Positions 10,763 to 47,297 of a stretch of DNA of 64,000 bases are shown piece by piece. The stretch covers positions 61,411 through 125,410 of the forward strand of contig CBDFKD010000001.1 in NCBI GenBank assembly GCA_965248695.1. The letters run 5' to 3'. Each line of letters begins with the position of its first letter. The stretch's first letter is position 1. The notes beneath the pieces are model-generated. The model ran no database searches and had not been told where the DNA came from. It saw only the letters and a program-made list of their open reading frames with translations. This stretch comes from Acidobacteriota bacterium (GTDB taxonomy: Bacteria; Acidobacteriota; UBA890; WLXD01). The position numbers were made by a program, and so were the translations under genes.

Positions 10763-11556
10763 GCGGCGTGGGTTCGGTCGTTCGCGCGGTTGCCCCCGCC
10801 GGACGCTCCGGTGGGGACGCGGCGTCCCGCCGCCCGTGCAAACGAATCGCCGCGGCTGTCGGCATCGTCCTCGTGGTTCAGCCGCTAGTGGCCTGTACCC
10901 TAATTTTCTCGGTGGAGAAGTCTCCATTTCTCCATACGATTTGTGTCGCGATGCGGATCGCGACCGGAGAACCTCAGTCACACGCTGATCGCGCATGCTC
11001 ACAAGGCGATTTCCGTGTTCGTCAGAGATGGATCGAGCTGCCACTAGCGAATCTCGGGGTGGGCGCAACCAGCTTCGGCACCATCACGATGGAAGGATTC
11101 CAGGTGAAGGGCACGGTGCCGGGCAGCAAGCTGCCCGAGTGGTCCCGGGCCGCGTACCCCGACCTCGCGACTCGCCGCGCTTCTCGGAGTGCGGCGAACC
11201 ACGACATCGTGGTGGCTGTGCTTGTCCTCGACGACGACCTGAACCCCGCAGCGGATGCCTTTGCTACCGCGAAGGCAACGGTGTACTCGGTCGACCGCAA
11301 AGGGAAGAAAAAGAAGCTCGCTAGCAAGACGGGAGCGGCTACACAGGATGAGGGCGGTGCGGTGATCCCGTTCTCCCGACTCAAGACGCCTGCAAGCCAC
11401 TACCTGGTCGAGGTTCAAACGGCCAAAGGCAAGGTGGTCAACGCGAGCGTGCTCTTCATGGCGTTGGTTACCCAAGCGGGGGCGACGGACGGGTTGCGTG
11501 GAGTCGTCGGCGGCCTACGACGCGCTCGAGCGCTGGCTTCGCAGTTCGTCGACTAG
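10759..11556 (+). CDS. Hypothetical protein, paralogue 2 of the same family; the N-terminal region contains a possible in-frame palindromic-element insertion
   Basis: The GTG overlaps the upstream stop (GTGA). Hydrophobic segment IAAAVGIVLVVQP, then a 53-codon lower-GC insert, then the conserved domain. The true start could instead lie downstream (GTG 11059 or ATG 11089). Confidence 0.5.
   Translation: MSGVGSVVRAVAPAGRSGGDAASRRPCKRIAAAVGIVLVVQPLVACTLIFSVEKSPFLHTICVAMRIATGEPQSHADRACSQGDFRVRQRWIELPLANLGVGATSFGTITMEGFQVKGTVPGSKLPEWSRAAYPDLATRRASRSAANHDIVVAVLVLDDDLNPAADAFATAKATVYSVDRKGKKKKLASKTGAATQDEGGAVIPFSRLKTPASHYLVEVQTAKGKVVNASVLFMALVTQAGATDGLRGVVGGLRRARALASQFVD
10885..11047. repeat. Possible short member of the CTAG-bounded element family (159-bp period, in frame with the host ORF)
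   Basis: The left end CTAGTGGCCTGTA is identical over 13 nt to the left end of the element at 28439. The right end GCCACTAG is identical over 8 nt to that element's right end. Local GC drops, and there are internal short hairpins (cgcgat-gcgg-atcgcg). Confidence 0.35.
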
Positions 11557-12425: not shown

Positions 12426-14210
12426 ATGGCCTCTGCGACGACGAACCGGTATCTGATAGTTGCCGCGCTGGTCATGACCTTGGCCTCCAGTGCCGCTTCC
12501 AGCGGCGCCCCAGAGGCGCGGCTGCGGTATGTCACCACGGCAAGGCAGCTCGGCCCCGTCGCGTACCGTGACCCGCTGGGGGTGCCATCGCCCGATGGGC
12601 GGTGGTTGGCGACACATGTCGGGTTGCGGCTGCGCGTCGAGCCTCTGGCTGGTGGGCCGGTGCGCGAGCTCGGTGACGGTCGGCGCCGCCGACTTCATCT
12701 GGCCTGGCGGCCCGACTCGCAAACACTGGTGGCGCGTGAGGCGGACCGCGAGCGCACCTGGTTCGATTGGAGCGAATACGACGTCGAGAGCGGCATGCGA
12801 AACCGGCTCTGGCCGGCGCTCGGCTCGTTGCGCCCGCCGGACGGGGAGGCGGCTGAGCGCCGGGATCTGTTGGAGGTCGCGTTCGCTGCCGATGGCTCCG
12901 TCGCCGGTCTGGTCGCGCGCGACACGGGGCGGCAGCTGTGGATCTTCGATGCGACTGGGTCGGTCCTGGAGACAGTCGGCGATCCCGGAATGCTGAGCAA
13001 CATTGCATGGAAGCCTGATGGCGGCGTGGCCTGCCTCGACGCGGATGGCGCCCGACCTCTGCTGAGCCTGGATTGCGGTCGTTCTCCGGGGTTGCTGGAT
13101 CTCGGCGAGGTCCGCGGTCCGGTGGCCTTTGACGGTGACGACGGCGTGTTCGTCGGACGACCGAACGACCGGGGTACGCTCGACCTGTGGCGCCTCGATT
13201 TGGCGTCCGGCGCAGCCGAGCAGATCAGTCAGTTTACGCGCGACACCTACGCACCCTACGCGCTGCCGAATGGACGCCTGCTGTTCAAGCTGCAGGAGTA
13301 CGCCGTCACCATCGCCCGCGTGGCGGCGGCCGGTGGTACCCCTCTTCCGGTCACGACCTTCCAATCGGAGACGCCGTCGTGGGACTGGACCGGCGAACAC
13401 ATCGCCTTCACGTACGGCAGCTGGCGCCGTGTCGTCGACGATGTGCACTACCCCGATATCGCGCAGCACGTCGGCACGGTGCGGGTCGCCGACGGCGTTG
13501 CCGATGAGCCACAGGAGGTGGTGCGTAGCTCCTACTCCGAGGACCAGGGCATGCACTGGTCACCGAACGGCCGCTGGATCGCGCTGCATTCGCACGCCGA
13601 CGGCACCGACGACATCTGGTTGCAGCCGGCCGACGGCTCAGCCGCGGCGGTGCCGATCACCGGCGGCGGCAACGAGACCGGTTGGCCGCGCTTCTCGCCG
13701 GACGGCAGATGGATCGTCTACTCCACCGACCGACGCGGGGCCGGTGAGCATCACGGCGTACTGCAGCTGGTCGGTTTCGACCAGGAGACCGGCGAAATTA
13801 CGTATCCGCAGCGCGACATCGAGCTCACCGATTTCGATGGCTTGGCGGGGTTCGCAGAGTTCGGCGCCGACTCACGCACGATTTTCTTCGAGGGCATGCA
13901 CGGGGTCGGAGAGCGCGCCGTGTGGAAGGTCGACCGGGACGGCGGCCGGCCGGAGCTGGTGCACCGCTATGGCAGCGAGCAGTGGGCCACGGGAATCTCG
14001 GTGTCGCCGGATAGCGACTGGGTCGCCTATATCGCCCCCGCCGCCGACGGCCGCATGCAGCTGTTCAGAGTGCCCTCCACCGGAGGCGATCCGGTGCAGA
14101 TCACCTTCGATCCGAGTGACAAGACCCATCCGTCGTGGTCGCCGCGCGGCGACCAGATTGCCTTCACGGTCTTCCGCTACCTGGCGCACTTTTGGCTCCT
14201 GGAGCCCTAG
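12426..14210 (+). CDS. Secreted PD40/WD40-like beta-propeller repeat protein (TolB-like)
   Basis: Signal peptide MASATTNRYLIVAALVMTLASSAASS. Repeated PD40 units WSPNGRWIALHS, FSPDGRWIVYSTD, VSPDSDWVAYIA and WSPRGDQIAFTV. Confidence 0.8.
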   Translation: MASATTNRYLIVAALVMTLASSAASSGAPEARLRYVTTARQLGPVAYRDPLGVPSPDGRWLATHVGLRLRVEPLAGGPVRELGDGRRRRLHLAWRPDSQTLVAREADRERTWFDWSEYDVESGMRNRLWPALGSLRPPDGEAAERRDLLEVAFAADGSVAGLVARDTGRQLWIFDATGSVLETVGDPGMLSNIAWKPDGGVACLDADGARPLLSLDCGRSPGLLDLGEVRGPVAFDGDDGVFVGRPNDRGTLDLWRLDLASGAAEQISQFTRDTYAPYALPNGRLLFKLQEYAVTIARVAAAGGTPLPVTTFQSETPSWDWTGEHIAFTYGSWRRVVDDVHYPDIAQHVGTVRVADGVADEPQEVVRSSYSEDQGMHWSPNGRWIALHSHADGTDDIWLQPADGSAAAVPITGGGNETGWPRFSPDGRWIVYSTDRRGAGEHHGVLQLVGFDQETGEITYPQRDIELTDFDGLAGFAEFGADSRTIFFEGMHGVGERAVWKVDRDGGRPELVHRYGSEQWATGISVSPDSDWVAYIAPAADGRMQLFRVPSTGGDPVQITFDPSDKTHPSWSPRGDQIAFTVFRYLAHFWLLEP

Positions 14211-14485
14211 CAGGCCGTGGTGAAAGTGTGGTGGGTCTGGCGACAGGGTCTTGCGAGGCGCAGGCCAGGAGAGAGGAGGAGGCGATGGTTACCCCATCGT
14301 TGACGACGAACGACGCAGCATACACGCGCAATCCCCAGTCGCCCAAAGGGTTACGGCGATTTGGGGCCATCTGCGGCGTTGGCCTTCCTCGACGATGGCT
14401 AGGGCATCGGGTGCGTCAGGCCGCCTTGCATCTGGCCCCAACTCGCCGTAACCAGACCCACCACACTTTCACCACGGCGTGCTAG
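14207..14485. mobile_element. CTAG-bounded 271-nt palindromic (MITE-like) element, subfamily A, copy 1
   Basis: CTAG at 14207-10 and 14482-85. The 30-nt terminal inverted repeats caggccgtggtgaaagtgtggtgggtctgg / ccagacccaccacactttcaccacggcgtg match 29/30. The element is 258/271 identical, with no indels, to 25065-25335 although the flanking genes are unrelated. Confidence 0.6.
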
Positions 14486-14506
14486 CGGCCTGTTACAGGC
14501 GACTAG
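14482..14506. repeat. Mini-palindrome CTAG-cggcctgt|tacaggcga-CTAG resembling joined termini of the subfamily B element
   Basis: The left 8 nt match the subfamily B left terminus tggcctgt 7/8. The right 9 nt match the right terminus tacaggcca 8/9. It shares its left CTAG with element copy 1. Confidence 0.35.
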
Positions 14507-21774: not shown

Positions 21775-21870
21775 CCTTCGGTGCCGGCGCCGACACCGCG
21801 GCGTCGTTGCCGCGAAGACCGTGGCCCGGGTCGGGCTCCGGCCTGGGCGCGCGGCGGGAGAAACAATGCC

Positions 21871-23418
21871 ATGAAGCGATGTGCATCGACCGTAGTCGTA
21901 CTGCTACTAGCGATAGCTGCTTGTTCCGGCACCGGCAACCCGTACGCGGAGAAGTTCACCTCCCTCGACACCAGCTGGGCGGTGACCGCCGACGAGGGCT
22001 ACGCGTGGGCGAAGGTGCGGGGTGACAACCTGCCGGCGCTGAACGGCAGCCCGGAGTTTCTCAGCTACCTCACCTTTCTCGAAGAGAAGCTCGTCGAGTA
22101 CGGCGCCGTGGACATGCACCGCAACACCTGGATGTTCGATCGCTGGGAGACGAGCTTCGACGACAGCGGGTGGTCGCTGGTGTCGGACGGCACACCGGTA
22201 CGCGTGGCGCACTACCAGGCGAACTCCGGCAACACGGGTCCCGAAGGCATCACGGCGGAGATGGTCTACTACGACCACGACAACCCGCCCGACGACATCG
22301 CCGGCAAGATCGTGGTGATCCCCACACGGCCCCACCCGGAGCCGCCGTACGACGAGCGCTACATCCAGGGCTTCACGTTCAACGACTACGAGTGGCGGGC
22401 CAACGACGATACGTACTGGGAACTGTTCGAGTTCGTGCCGCCGGAGTTCTCGATAACCTTCGATATTTGGTGGCAGCTGGGTCAGGGGCTGTGGCGGATC
22501 GCCGTCGACGGGGGCGCCGCCGGGCACGTGATCGTTTACGACATGGGGTTCGAGCGTACGGAGGGCCTCTTCACCTTCGGAGTGCCGCCGCTGCACGAGT
22601 CGCCAGGGGTGATCCTCAGCCGCGAGGATGGCGCTGAGGTTATCGAGGACGCCAAGGCGGGCAAGACAGCGACGCTGCGGCTGGAGGCGACCGTCCAGGA
22701 ATCGGAGGCCTTCCAGACGATCGTGTACCTTCCCGGCCGCGACTACGGGACGCCGGACGACGAGCAGATCCTGATGATCAACCATACGGACGGCTCGTCG
22801 ATTACGCAGGACAACGGCGCGCTCGGGTTGCTGGCGATCGTCAAGTACTTCTCCAACATCCCGCAGGAGCACCGGCCGCGAACGCTCACCGTCTTCCTCG
22901 ACGGCCGGCACTACTACCCGGGAGCGGAGCGGGCATCGGCCGACGTCAGCTGGCCGGTCCGGAATCCGGAGGCGCTGGAACCGCTGGTGGCCCTCATGCA
23001 CATCGAGCACATGGGCGAGATGGACTTCCGTGAGGTCGACGGCAGGTTGGAGGAGGTCGGGCTGGCCGAGCAGTCGTACCTGTGGACGCGCAACAACCAG
23101 GTGCTGATCGACGCGGCGGTCGCGGCAGCCCAGGAATACGGGTGGGAGCGCGTGCAGGTATCGGCGCCCGAGCGTCCGGGAATCAACGGGGGCCTGCAGC
23201 AGCGCTGGTGGGGCATTGCCGGGCGATTCCATCGCCGCTGCGACGACTGCCTCAACCTTCCGGGCTTCGGCCTAGGTGGCTTCCTGGGTCTGTACTGGAC
23301 GACCGCAAGCGGGATCGAGCGCTTCAACCAGGAGTTGTTTAAGAACCAGGCGCACACGATGACGGAGCTCACCGGCTTGCTGATGACCGCGGACCTTGAC
23401 GAGATTCGTCCCCAATAG
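21871..23418 (+). CDS. Lipoprotein with PA (protease-associated) domain and M28-like peptidase fold, tandem paralogue 1
   Basis: Lipobox LLAIAAC. PA-like [24 protein letters not shown] and M28-like [25 protein letters not shown]. Start trimmed to ATG 21871, with GGGAG upstream. Confidence 0.75.
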
Positions 23419-23429
23419 GAGGCAGCAAT

Positions 23430-25064
23430 ATGTGGGCCCACTCGCAACGACGCCTGGGACCGGGCGCCTCCACGCAGCCGCATCCGCGGGCGACCGTGGC
23501 ACGCTGGCAGTCGCTCGTCATCGCCCTGTCAGTCGTTGCACTGGGGTGCGCTGGTAGCAGCGACAACCCGTACGCCGACAAGTTCACCAACATTGACCCG
23601 GCCTGGGCGGTGACCGCCGACGAGGGCTACGAGTGGGCGCTGGTGAAGAGCGCCAACCTGCCGGCGATGAACGGCAGCCCGGAGTGGGTGAACTACGTCA
23701 CCTTCCTGGAGGACAAGCTGAAGGAGTTCGGCGTCGTCGACATGCATCGCAACAGCTGGATGTACGACCGCTGGCACACCTCCAAGGACAACACCGACTG
23801 GTCCCTGGTCTCTGATGGGGATCCGGTGCGCGTGGCTCACTACGCGGCCAACTCGGGCAACACCGGGCCCGAGGGCCTTACCGCCGAGATGGTCTACTAC
23901 GACCACGACAACCCGCCCGACTCGGTCGAAGGCAAGATCGTGGTGATCCCGACGCGGCCGCATCCGCAGCCGCCGTACGACGACGAGTACATCATCAACT
24001 TCACCTTCAACGACTACGAGTGGCGCGCCAACGACGACACGTACTGGGAACTGTTCGAGTTCGTGCCGCCGGAGTTTTCGATCACCTTCGATATCTGGTG
24101 GCAGCTGCGCCAGAGCCTGTGGCGGATTGCCGTCGACGGTAACGCCGCCGGTCACGTGATCGTCTACGACATGGCGTTCGAGCGCACCGAAGGGCTGTAT
24201 ACGTTCGGGGTGCCGCCGCTGCACGAGTCGCCCGGCGTGATCCTGAGTCGCGAGGACGGCGCCAAGGTGCTCGAGGACGCCAAGGCGGGCAAGACCGCTA
24301 CGTTGCGGCTCGAGGCCACCATCGAGGAGACCGAGGCGTACCAGACCATCTCCTATCTTCCCGGCCGCGACTATGGAACGCCGGACGACGAGCAGGTTCT
24401 GCTGATCAATCACACCGACGGCCCGTCGGTTACCCAGGACAACGGCGCGCTCGGGCTGCTGGCTATCGTCAAGTACTTCTCGCACATCCCCCAAGAGCAC
24501 CGGCCGCGGACGCTCACCGTTTTCCTCGACAGCCGCCACTACTTTCCCGGGGCGGAGGGTGCCTCACATGACACGAGCTGGCTGACGCGGAATCCAGAGG
24601 CCAAAGAGCCGCTCGTGGCGCTGCTGCAGGCCGAGCACTTGGGCGAGAACGACTATCGCGAGGTCGACGGCGTGGTCGAGCCGGTGGGCCTGGCTGAGCA
24701 GTCCTATCTGTGGTCGCGCAACAACCCGGTGCTGATCGATGCCGCGGTGATCGCTGCCAAAGAGCACGGGTGGGAGCGCGTACAGGTGGCGGTGCCCGAG
24801 CGCCCGGGGATCAACGGTGGCCTCCAGCAGGTTTGGTGGGGTGTGGGGTCCCGGGCGCTGCCCGGAGGTCGCGAATCCCTCGACCTGCCCGGCTATGGCC
24901 TCGGTGGATTCCTCGGGCTGTACTGGACGACTGCGTCGGGCATCGAACGGTGGAACAAAGAGCTGTTCGAGAACCAGGCGCACACGATGACGCAGCTGGC
25001 GGGTGTGCTGATGACCGCGGATCTGGACGAGATCCAGCCCGAGGAAACCGAATCTCAGCCCTAG
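23430..25064 (+). CDS. Lipoprotein with PA domain and M28-like fold, tandem paralogue 2
   Basis: SD AGGAGG 8 nt upstream and lipobox VVALGC. Collinear with paralogue 1 along the whole mature protein, roughly four-fifths identical by eye. Confidence 0.8.
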   Translation: MWAHSQRRLGPGASTQPHPRATVARWQSLVIALSVVALGCAGSSDNPYADKFTNIDPAWAVTADEGYEWALVKSANLPAMNGSPEWVNYVTFLEDKLKEFGVVDMHRNSWMYDRWHTSKDNTDWSLVSDGDPVRVAHYAANSGNTGPEGLTAEMVYYDHDNPPDSVEGKIVVIPTRPHPQPPYDDEYIINFTFNDYEWRANDDTYWELFEFVPPEFSITFDIWWQLRQSLWRIAVDGNAAGHVIVYDMAFERTEGLYTFGVPPLHESPGVILSREDGAKVLEDAKAGKTATLRLEATIEETEAYQTISYLPGRDYGTPDDEQVLLINHTDGPSVTQDNGALGLLAIVKYFSHIPQEHRPRTLTVFLDSRHYFPGAEGASHDTSWLTRNPEAKEPLVALLQAEHLGENDYREVDGVVEPVGLAEQSYLWSRNNPVLIDAAVIAAKEHGWERVQVAVPERPGINGGLQQVWWGVGSRALPGGRESLDLPGYGLGGFLGLYWTTASGIERWNKELFENQAHTMTQLAGVLMTADLDEIQPEETESQP

Positions 25065-25339
25065 CAGGCCATGGTGAAAGTGTGGTGGGTCTGGCGACAG
25101 GGTTTTGCGAGGCGCAGGCCAGGAGAGAGGAGGAGGCGATGGTAACCCCATCGTTGACGACAAACGACGCAGCATCCGCGCGCAACCCCCAGTCGCCCGA
25201 AGGGTTACGGCGATTTGGGGCCATCTGCGGCGTTGGCCCTCCTCGACGATGGCTAGTGCATCGTCTGCGTCAGGCCGCCTTGCATCTGGCCCCAACTCGC
25301 CGTAACCAGACCCACCACACTTTCACCACGGCCTGCTAG
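25061..25339. mobile_element. CTAG-bounded 271-nt palindromic (MITE-like) element, subfamily A, copy 2
   Basis: CTAG at 25061-64 and 25336-39. 30-nt TIRs match 29/30. There are 13 substitutions and no indels versus copy 1. The left CTAG contains the host gene's TAG stop. Confidence 0.6.
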
Positions 25340-28037: not shown

Positions 28038-28442
28038 ATGTTCGTTGCTCATATCGACGGCGCCTCGCGCGGCAATCCCGGACATGCAGCTTATGGCGTG
28101 CGGGTGTGCGATTCCGGCGGCGTCGAAGTGGCACGATTCGGCGAGTATCTCGGCCATCAAACCAATAACTACGCCGAGTACCAGGGCCTGATTGCGGCGC
28201 TCCGCTGGGCCCGAGACAACGACGTCGAGGCTTTCATGGTGCGCTCCGACTCACAGCTGCTCGTGCGGCAAATGCAGGGTCGCTACAAGGTCAAGAGCGC
28301 CACTTTGCGCCCGCTCTGGCAACAGGCGTCGGAGCTCGCGGAGTCGCTACGCGAGCTCCGCCTGGAACACGTCCGCCGTGAAAACAACGTCGAAGCGGAT
28401 TCGCTTGCCAACGAAGTGCTGGACGCCCGCCCGCGCCACTAG
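28038..28442 (+). CDS. rnhA: Ribonuclease HI (type 1 RNase H)
   Basis: DEDD residues in context: HIDGASRGNPG, TNNYAEYQGL, VRSDSQLLV and NNVEADSLAN. Confidence 0.85.
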   Translation: MFVAHIDGASRGNPGHAAYGVRVCDSGGVEVARFGEYLGHQTNNYAEYQGLIAALRWARDNDVEAFMVRSDSQLLVRQMQGRYKVKSATLRPLWQQASELAESLRELRLEHVRRENNVEADSLANEVLDARPRH

Positions 28443-28716
28443 TGGCCTGTAACAGATGAACGTTACCTATCGCAGATGGGATTTGCGGGTGAGATCAAGG
28501 CGCGGCGAGGAAGGCGATGCAATGGGCATCGTCGAGGAGGCGCAACGCCGATATTGCCTGCAACTGCCCATCTGTCCGGAGGATGATGGCGAAATCCGCC
28601 CGTCTGCGGCGTTGCCCCTCCTCGAAGATGGGCAAACATCGTCTCGTCGGTGCGCCTGGCATTCGGACCCATTTCGCCACCACGATAGGCAACGTTCATC
28701 TGTTACAGGCCACTAG
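28439..28716. mobile_element. CTAG-bounded 270-nt palindromic (MITE-like) element, subfamily B
   Basis: CTAG at 28439-42 (contains the rnhA TAG) and 28713-16 (contains the pgeF TAG on the other strand). The 30-nt TIRs tggcctgtaacagatgaacgttacctatcg match 29/30. Internal blocks are shared with subfamily A, for example a 32-nt block at 28/32. Confidence 0.6.
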
Positions 28717-47171: not shown

Positions 47172-47297
47172 GGGAGAGTCGGGGGTCTGTGGCTCCAATG
47201 GCCTGGGGCGAAAGCTAGCCAGGGTTGTAAAGGGAGGCATTTTTTACAACACATGGGTTACTAGCTGGCCATGGAGCCACAGATCCCCGACTCTCCG
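47172..47297. repeat. Nested palindromic element in the rsmH-ftsL spacer: ~31-bp outer stem enclosing a CTAG...CTAG-flanked AT-rich inner palindrome
   Basis: The outer arms 47171-47203 and 47267-47297 are complementary apart from two 1-nt bulges and one G:T. The inner 42 nt between CTAG 47215-18 and CTAG 47261-64 contain gttgtaaa...tttacaac. Confidence 0.6.

Follow-up and report, generated by a model that had tools for sequence, protein, structure and literature searches.

Organization of the e1 locus

The repeat element e1 is located in a 64,000-nucleotide stretch of the genome of an Acidobacteriota bacterium (contig CBDFKD010000001.1, positions 61,411 to 125,410 of the forward strand), which is referred to here as the window. 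A gene encoding a PD40 β-propeller protein (12426–14210) ends in e1, and a gene for a CDGSH iron-sulfur protein lies on the other side. The element occupies positions 14207–14485 of the plus strand and is 279 nucleotides long, including a CTAG tetramer at each end. The left CTAG (14207–14210), the insertion target, supplies the PD40 gene with its TAG stop codon, and the right CTAG is at 14482–14485. The left terminal arm (14211–14244) pairs with the right terminal arm (14448–14481) to form helix 1. The outermost 30 nucleotides of the arms (14211–14240 and 14452–14481) are complementary at 29 of 30 positions, and the complementarity is 85% over 47 nucleotides. Within the right sub-hairpin (CGATGG-CTAG-GGCATCG), the loop contains an additional CTAG (14399–14402).

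A second copy of the element, e2 (25061–25339, plus strand), differs from e1 at 13 of 279 positions and contains no insertions or deletions. An open reading frame (ORF; 23430–25064) for a 544-residue protein of unknown kind ends in the left CTAG of e2, which provides its stop, and the neighboring gene encodes an amidohydrolase. Re-reading of the sequence confirmed the anatomy put forward in the original prediction: the bracketing of e1 by CTAG tetramers, the 30-nucleotide inverted repeats, the identity of the two copies at 258 of 271 positions without gaps, the unrelated genes around them, and the stop codons provided by their left CTAGs. The context AGCC-CTAG on the left and CTAG-CGGC on the right is indeed present at both copies. 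However, it is a coincidence rather than a meaningful signal, because the flanks are random across 191 ends of the family, and the right-hand CGGCC at e1 belongs to an adjoining mini element. In line with the claim that the window lacks a transposase, a tblastn search of the window with an IS110-family transposase found no match and the six genes beside the elements are ordinary, but not every ORF was scanned. The gene whose stop codon abuts e2 is one of two adjacent paralogs of about 545 residues each (21781–25064), which are direct repeats with a spacing of 1628 nucleotides and are 77–78% identical. A Pfam search detected no domain in the second paralog.

The third full-size element of the window, e3 (28439–28716, plus strand), is 278 nucleotides long and has a core related to that of e1 but different arms (CTAGTGGCCTGTAACAG...). 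It is positioned between convergent genes for RNase H and a laccase-domain protein, and its two CTAGs provide both stop codons. The nhmmer E-values against the family profile are 5e-93 for e1 and 6e-53 for e3. The window contains two subfamilies, e1-type and e3-type, of one family. Neither e3 nor the mini unit and the probable solo terminus described below were part of the original prediction.

Abundance and variants of the family

The elements belong to a family of non-coding, nearly full-length imperfect palindromes of about 279 nucleotides, with 34–47-nucleotide terminal inverted repeats, that is present in a clade of soil Acidobacteriota. A search with the conserved core motif identified 14 loci in three Acidobacteriota metagenome-assembled genomes (MAGs). 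Reference genomes were scanned once with each type of arm; the resulting counts are lower bounds among the matches listed. More than 106 stretches match the e1-type arm and more than 91 the e3-type arm, nearly all of them from Acidobacteriota MAGs and, for the e1-type arm, from at least 15 assemblies. A scan of JGI metagenomes added 56 stretches. Neither arm has a match in viral contigs, and none was found in plasmid records. The repeat is thus dispersed, as had been proposed, and the copy count that the original prediction called for runs to hundreds in related genomes.

The arms of a pair are mostly 273 nucleotides apart, which corresponds to 279 nucleotides with the CTAGs. The 52 distinct full-length e1-type copies have a mean pairwise identity of 86% and a maximum of 98.6%, which is reached by copies within one genome. 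Many derivatives of 45–180 nucleotides have lost the center of the element and kept both termini, and some copies abut each other through one common CTAG. Sampled loci are designated here by the letter L and a number. An aldehyde-dehydrogenase-like reading frame includes both half of an e1-type copy (the right one, L052:5853–5980) and an in-frame stop codon; this is either a disrupted gene or an error in the long-read assembly.

Insertion of the element into CTAG

The right CTAG of e1 is shared with a 25-nucleotide mini unit (14482–14506; CTAG-CGGCCTGTTACAGGCGA-CTAG) that resembles fused e3-type ends. A similar unit is present in L080. Locus L206 is a syntenic ortholog of the e1 locus that lacks e1. 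Its gene order is the same, and its PD40 ortholog and downstream gene are 88% and 94% identical to those of the window. The sequence of L206 reads ...GAGCC-GTAG-CTGCCTGCTACAGGCCT-CTAG-AATGCGCCC..., in which CTGCCTGCTACAGGCCT is the mini unit, whereas that of the window reads ...GAGCC-CTAG-[271 nt]-CTAG-CGGCCTGTTACAGGCGA-CTAG-AATACGCCC.... The first base of the tetramer, which distinguishes GTAG from CTAG, is the synonymous third position of a proline codon (CCG or CCC). From the single stop tetramer of L206 in place of the CTAG-e1-CTAG of the window, it follows that e1 plus four bases was inserted precisely into this tetramer. As the mini unit also occurs at this position in L206, it is older than e1.

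Locus L106 provides a second empty site: one stop-codon CTAG takes the place of the element present in L010. In addition, a host copy in L067 has received another element in its internal CTAG, at the position equivalent to 14399–14402 of e1, so that ...GCC-CTAG-CCATCG... has become ...GCC-CTAG-[element]-CTAA-CCATCG.... Loci L098 and L173 contain further levels of nesting. Of the e1-type ends, 158 of 191 are bounded by the tetramer CTAG, as are 111 of 136 of the e3-type ends (82–83%), and the positions beyond it are random. The element inserts at CTAG and leaves CTAG on both sides. Empty sites, which the original prediction had suggested looking for at CTAG, therefore exist, one of them precise for e1, and the description of e1 as a non-autonomous, hairpin-forming element resembling transposable elements of the miniature inverted-repeat type (MITEs) and targeting CTAG is borne out by the copies, the precise empty site, and the nested insertion.

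Besides TTAG, CCAG and CTGG are the commonest decayed tetramers at junctions across the family. They may reflect erosion of CTAG by very-short-patch-type repair or by an AT-to-GC mutation bias, either of which would act in this direction.

Association of the copies with stop codons

In 67% of the elements, a junction CTAG is the stop of a reading frame of at least 80 codons. The background is nearly the same, since 33 of the 50 CTAGs of the window (66%) end such frames. The association with stop codons therefore reflects the availability of targets and not the targeting of stop codons. The window has a GC content of 66% and contains 50 CTAG sites, fewer than the 76 predicted by a Markov model or the 201 predicted by base composition. 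Because the genome is GC-rich, the CTAGs that survive are mostly a C followed by a TAG stop codon. The element regenerates CTAG at both of its ends, which leaves the stop codon of the host gene intact, and the copies consequently appear to start at a stop codon. The stop is supplied by the left junction in 26 copies and by the right junction in 20, and the orientation is thus unbiased.

Conservation of the hairpin and absence of coding capacity

The predicted fold of the e1 region has an energy of −168 kcal/mol and a z-score of −11.6 relative to shuffled sequences. The z-scores of the elements, −11.6 and −10.6, are far outside the range of chance. Covariation was assessed in a correctly oriented alignment (A2), with slid pairing partners and 500 shuffles as controls. 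Paired bases occupy 97.7% of the cells of the alignment, compared with 33–47% when the partners are slid, and double-sided changes affect 36 of 86 pairs, compared with 6–13 in the slid controls. None of the 500 shuffles reached the observed values of pairing or covariation. Helix 1 comprises 32 pairs, of which 20 change on both sides family-wide, with 97.3% of the cells paired. Examples from the e1-type arms are pair 17/268, which is A-U in 36 copies and G-C in 11; pair 26/259, which is U-A in 41 copies and C-G in 10; and pair 30/255, which is U-A in 40 copies and C-G in 11. Almost every base of the e3-type arms is replaced relative to the e1-type arms, but the pairing is kept. The double-sided changes and the turnover of the e3-type arms show that the complementarity of the arms is maintained, either by selection or by correction within the hairpin.

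A conserved Shine–Dalgarno sequence and an ATG at 14285 open a 66-codon frame in e1. However, some copies contain frame-shifting insertions or deletions in the hairpin loop just 3′ of the ATG, and the conserved TCTGCGGCGTTG block is read in different frames by e1 and e3. A protein database search with the ATG frame retrieved only gene calls of 66–116 residues that coincide with copies of the element. The element is non-coding. The strong ribosome-binding signal is what might suggest a gene for a small protein, and the differences in frame between the subfamilies speak against it; a segmental duplication is contradicted by the unrelated flanks of e1 and e2, and an assembly artefact by the occurrence of the repeat in independent assemblies. 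The probability that any of these three explanations applies is negligible.

It is also very unlikely that the elements are functional structured RNAs or hairpins of 3′ untranslated regions, serving as terminators, stabilizers, or genes for small RNAs, with a copy number that is incidental. Such a function would agree with the stability of the folds, the frequent position directly after stop codons, and the conservation of the core between the e1 and e3 subfamilies. Nevertheless, the proximity to stop codons does not exceed the CTAG background, the elements are not biased in orientation to the upstream gene, and the polymorphic insertions and nesting show mobility. No promoter or terminator signature, such as a T-tract, was found in the elements, and with Rfam covariance models neither the gathering score nor a limit of E ≤ 1 gave a match to them. 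The even distribution of stops between left and right junctions, together with these negative searches, speaks against a strand-specific role. Secondary effects of the element on mRNA ends are possible.

Mechanism of mobilization

It is probable that e1 is a non-autonomous transposable element, a MITE in its anatomy and behavior rather than by demonstrated descent, and that it is moved in trans by a DDE transposase. As is characteristic of MITEs, members of the family are shorter than 1 kb and lack a transposase gene, have terminal inverted repeats, are polymorphic for presence or absence, and are dispersed in many copies. The transposase would recognize the arms of the element. The favored type is an enzyme of the IS630/Tc1-mariner group, which would duplicate the TA within CTAG; the element proper would then begin with G and end with C, and its junctions would read C-TA-[G...C]-TA-G. 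Insertion sequence (IS) IS630 targets the TA in 5′-CTAG-3′ (Tenzen and Ohtsubo 1991, as entered in the reference list of PMC2170065). Alternatively, an IS5-like enzyme might generate a 4-bp duplication of CTAG. Elements of the IS5 family duplicate a 4-bp target of the YTAR type. The connection to IS5 mentioned in the original prediction is neither supported nor contradicted, and an IS630-type target of TA in CTAG would fit equally well. The parent of a DDE-mobilized family would be a transposase gene bounded by CTAG and CAGGCCGTGG... or TGGCCTGTAACAG....

Several observations weigh against mobilization by a DDE transposase. Duplications of TA and of CTAG would result in identical sequences, and the junctions by themselves would therefore not distinguish the two types of enzyme. 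No autonomous element with these termini was found in approximately 2.1 Mb of arm-containing loci, including contigs of long-read MAGs; these loci were drawn from the matches listed in the scans, and the absence of such an element is therefore not proven. When the ORFs of the loci were clustered all against all, the only multi-copy transposases were of the IS1111 type (IS110/IS1111) and of the IS3 family, both with unrelated ends. Furthermore, the arms co-vary beyond what the binding of a transposase would need, which hints that the formation of the hairpin itself matters. The IS630 family is not represented among the multi-copy ORFs of the sampled loci, and no IS5-like parent was found in them. 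A systematic search of the loci for CTAG-bounded inverted-repeat units of 600–3500 bp retrieved only the known arms, and a metagenome scan for arms joined to a continuation other than that of the MITE gave no match.

Individual candidates for the parent were rejected. Pairs of arms 0.6–8 kb apart (L082, L043, L095, and L253) hold passenger or ordinary genes and no transposase, the ORFs just inside arms that seemed to be orphans are ordinary genes, and three metagenome candidates (L239, L241, and L261) represent one lipB-lipA locus of related strains. In L082:1281–2653, inverted e1-type arms bracket a 1.37-kb unit encoding a protein with three RidA/L-PSP domains, and in L043:5497–7697 they bracket 2.2 kb with peroxiredoxin, YbaK-like, and SnoaL-like ORFs. 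Such units may represent mobile insertion cassettes, or solo arms that are paired by chance. The IS3-family element (rve and HTH_21 domains) at L154:880–2140 has its own ends, TGACCTGACCCC...GGGGTCAGGTCA, which are unrelated to the repeats.

IS1111-type insertion sequence at e3-type termini

The IS1111-type multi-copy transposase is encoded by an IS of 1402–1406 bp. The 348-residue protein contains the Pfam domains DEDD_Tnp_IS110 and Transposase_20. At least 12 copies of the IS were identified, all in MAG CBDBHB: L052:6291–7696 and copies in L010, L119, L126, L152, L163, L173, L178, and L197, with partial copies in L036, L124, L171, and L174. The left flank of the copies is a variable sequence that always ends in CTAG, and the right flank always begins with TGGCCTG..., where an e3-type element or a related one has its first base. 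The ends of the IS, AGATGAG-ATGAGAAGGCC...GGCCTTCTCAT-AGA, comprise 11-bp subterminal repeats that are extended by 7 bp at the left end and by 3 bp at the right end, and a 262-nucleotide non-coding region lies downstream of tnp. Members of the IS1111 family are defined by a DEDD transposase and a specific target, by 11–13-bp subterminal inverted repeats with left and right extensions of 7 and 3 bp, and by non-coding sequence downstream of tnp (PMC11187229). The IS at the e3-type termini has all of these features and belongs to this family. According to the rule given in PMC11187229, its insertion point is between CT and AG of CTAGTGGCC (CT|AGTGGCC), without duplication of the target. No stretch of seven or more nucleotides is common to the non-coding region and the target, which is not decisive because guide segments are short and split. 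Rfam searches with the non-coding ends of the IS gave no match at gathering or permissive thresholds.

The constant position of this IS at the CTAG of an e3-type arm, and its being the only multi-copy transposase of the sample apart from the unrelated IS3 element, could indicate that the repeats are its partners, moved by its DEDD recombinase and a guide RNA. Such a partnership is extremely unlikely. The ends of the IS are unrelated to the termini of the repeats, all of its copies are in a single MAG whereas the e1-type arm alone occurs in at least 15 assemblies, and RNA-guided insertion depends on about 10 nucleotides of target sequence whereas the flanks of the repeats are random beyond CTAG. 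In view of its unrelated ends and of its absence from most of the repeat-bearing genomes, the IS is a secondary occupant of the repeats and not their mobilizer. Similar targeting of mobile elements is known from IS4321 and IS5075, which insert into the terminal repeats of Tn21-family transposons (PMC11187229), and from IS1111, which inserts into QMITE2 of Coxiella (PMC5896051).

Comparison with known repeat families

The maintained hairpin, the tetramer at both ends, and the occupation by an IS1111-type element resemble the repetitive extragenic palindromic sequences (REPs) and their paired forms, REPINs, which are associated with REP-associated tyrosine transposases (RAYTs). REPs and REPINs are palindromic, possess a conserved four-nucleotide tag, and are favored targets of IS110/IS1111-type elements. 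By analogy, the family may consist of single-stranded hairpins moved by an HUH enzyme of the RAYT/IS200 type or by another enzyme, with CTAG as a cleavage tag, and not of deletion derivatives of a DDE-type IS. This would account for the complementarity that is kept along the whole length with compensatory changes, for an invariant palindromic tetranucleotide at both ends, for an IS1111-type element that targets e3-type termini as such elements do REPs and QMITE2 of Coxiella, and for a parent IS not being found in the sampled loci. However, the units are roughly 3 to 10 times longer: REPs are 20–40 nucleotides long and tagged with GTAG or CGTC, according to PMC3733652, whereas the elements described here have 279 nucleotides and the tag CTAG. 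Furthermore, the target is duplicated, so that the tetramer is present on both sides after insertion; no pair of arms brackets a RAYT-sized gene; and none of 8,997 ORFs of the sampled loci has the HUH...Y(x)3NP signature in a crude regular-expression screen. Movement of the REP/REPIN-like kind is unlikely.

In a broader form of this idea, which is also unlikely, the elements would constitute a superfamily of CTAG-tagged hairpins, REPIN-like units of 280 nucleotides whose movement needs a folded single strand and an enzyme not yet linked to them, and which do not derive from DDE elements. It would explain why no parent IS is seen in long-read genomes with near-identical copies, why the complementarity survived the full turnover of the arms between subfamilies, and why the palindromic tag is kept so strictly at either end. 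Should the mobilizing enzyme prove to be of another class than the DDE transposases, the importance of the family would rise considerably.

ERIC and Correia elements are comparable repeats that are palindromic over their whole length. The family has no sequence similarity to them or to the QMITEs of Coxiella. MITEs of the IS630/Tc1-mariner group are likewise small, non-coding, and present in high copy numbers, with terminal inverted repeats and a mostly intergenic or gene-end location, and their target is centered on the TA inside CTAG with the flanking sequence regenerated. Unlike them, the family has long arms (34–47 nucleotides) and a hairpin that is maintained over the entire element. Compared with IS5-family elements and MITEs, a 4-bp direct repeat of CTAG would fit the junctions; the termini of the family are CAGGCC... 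and TGGCC.... QMITE1 and QMITE2 (PMC5896051) share with the family a long stable hairpin of at most a few hundred nucleotides, frequent overlap with the ends of ORFs, and the occurrence of deletion variants, and QMITE2 is a hot-spot for the insertion of IS1111. By contrast, their direct repeats are variable, whereas the target here is a fixed CTAG, and their host is from another phylum.

The family is new, although MITEs as a kind are well known; its mildly unusual features are the strict CTAG target, the maintained whole-length hairpin, and the role as a landing pad for an IS1111-type element. A rare palindromic tetramer channels the mobile element to the ends of genes, which remain unharmed. 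For annotation, the repeats matter in that they adjoin or overlap stop codons, give rise to spurious calls of small ORFs, and fragment short-read assemblies of Acidobacteriota genomes. The IS1111-type element, which is presumably RNA-guided, adds a layer of parasitism, as it addresses the terminus of another mobile element. Its natural target, CT|AGTGGCCTG..., could aid the study of seekRNA or bridge-RNA specificity.

Other repeats in the window

The CTAG-bounded stretch at 10885–11047 is 163 nucleotides long, has a lower GC content, and begins with a probable solo or decayed e3-type terminus (CTAGTGGCCTGTA; 10885–10897, plus strand), with the second CTAG 163 nucleotides downstream. Only the outermost 8–9 nucleotides at each end resemble e3-type termini, and the assignment is therefore tentative; the stretch may be a decayed derivative or one with a replaced interior. 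A 124-nucleotide hairpin at 47173–47296 is unrelated to the family. Its 25-nucleotide arms (GGAGAGTCGGGGGTCTGTGGCTCCA...) are 96% complementary, it contains two internal CTAGs, and it may represent a different family of small repeats.

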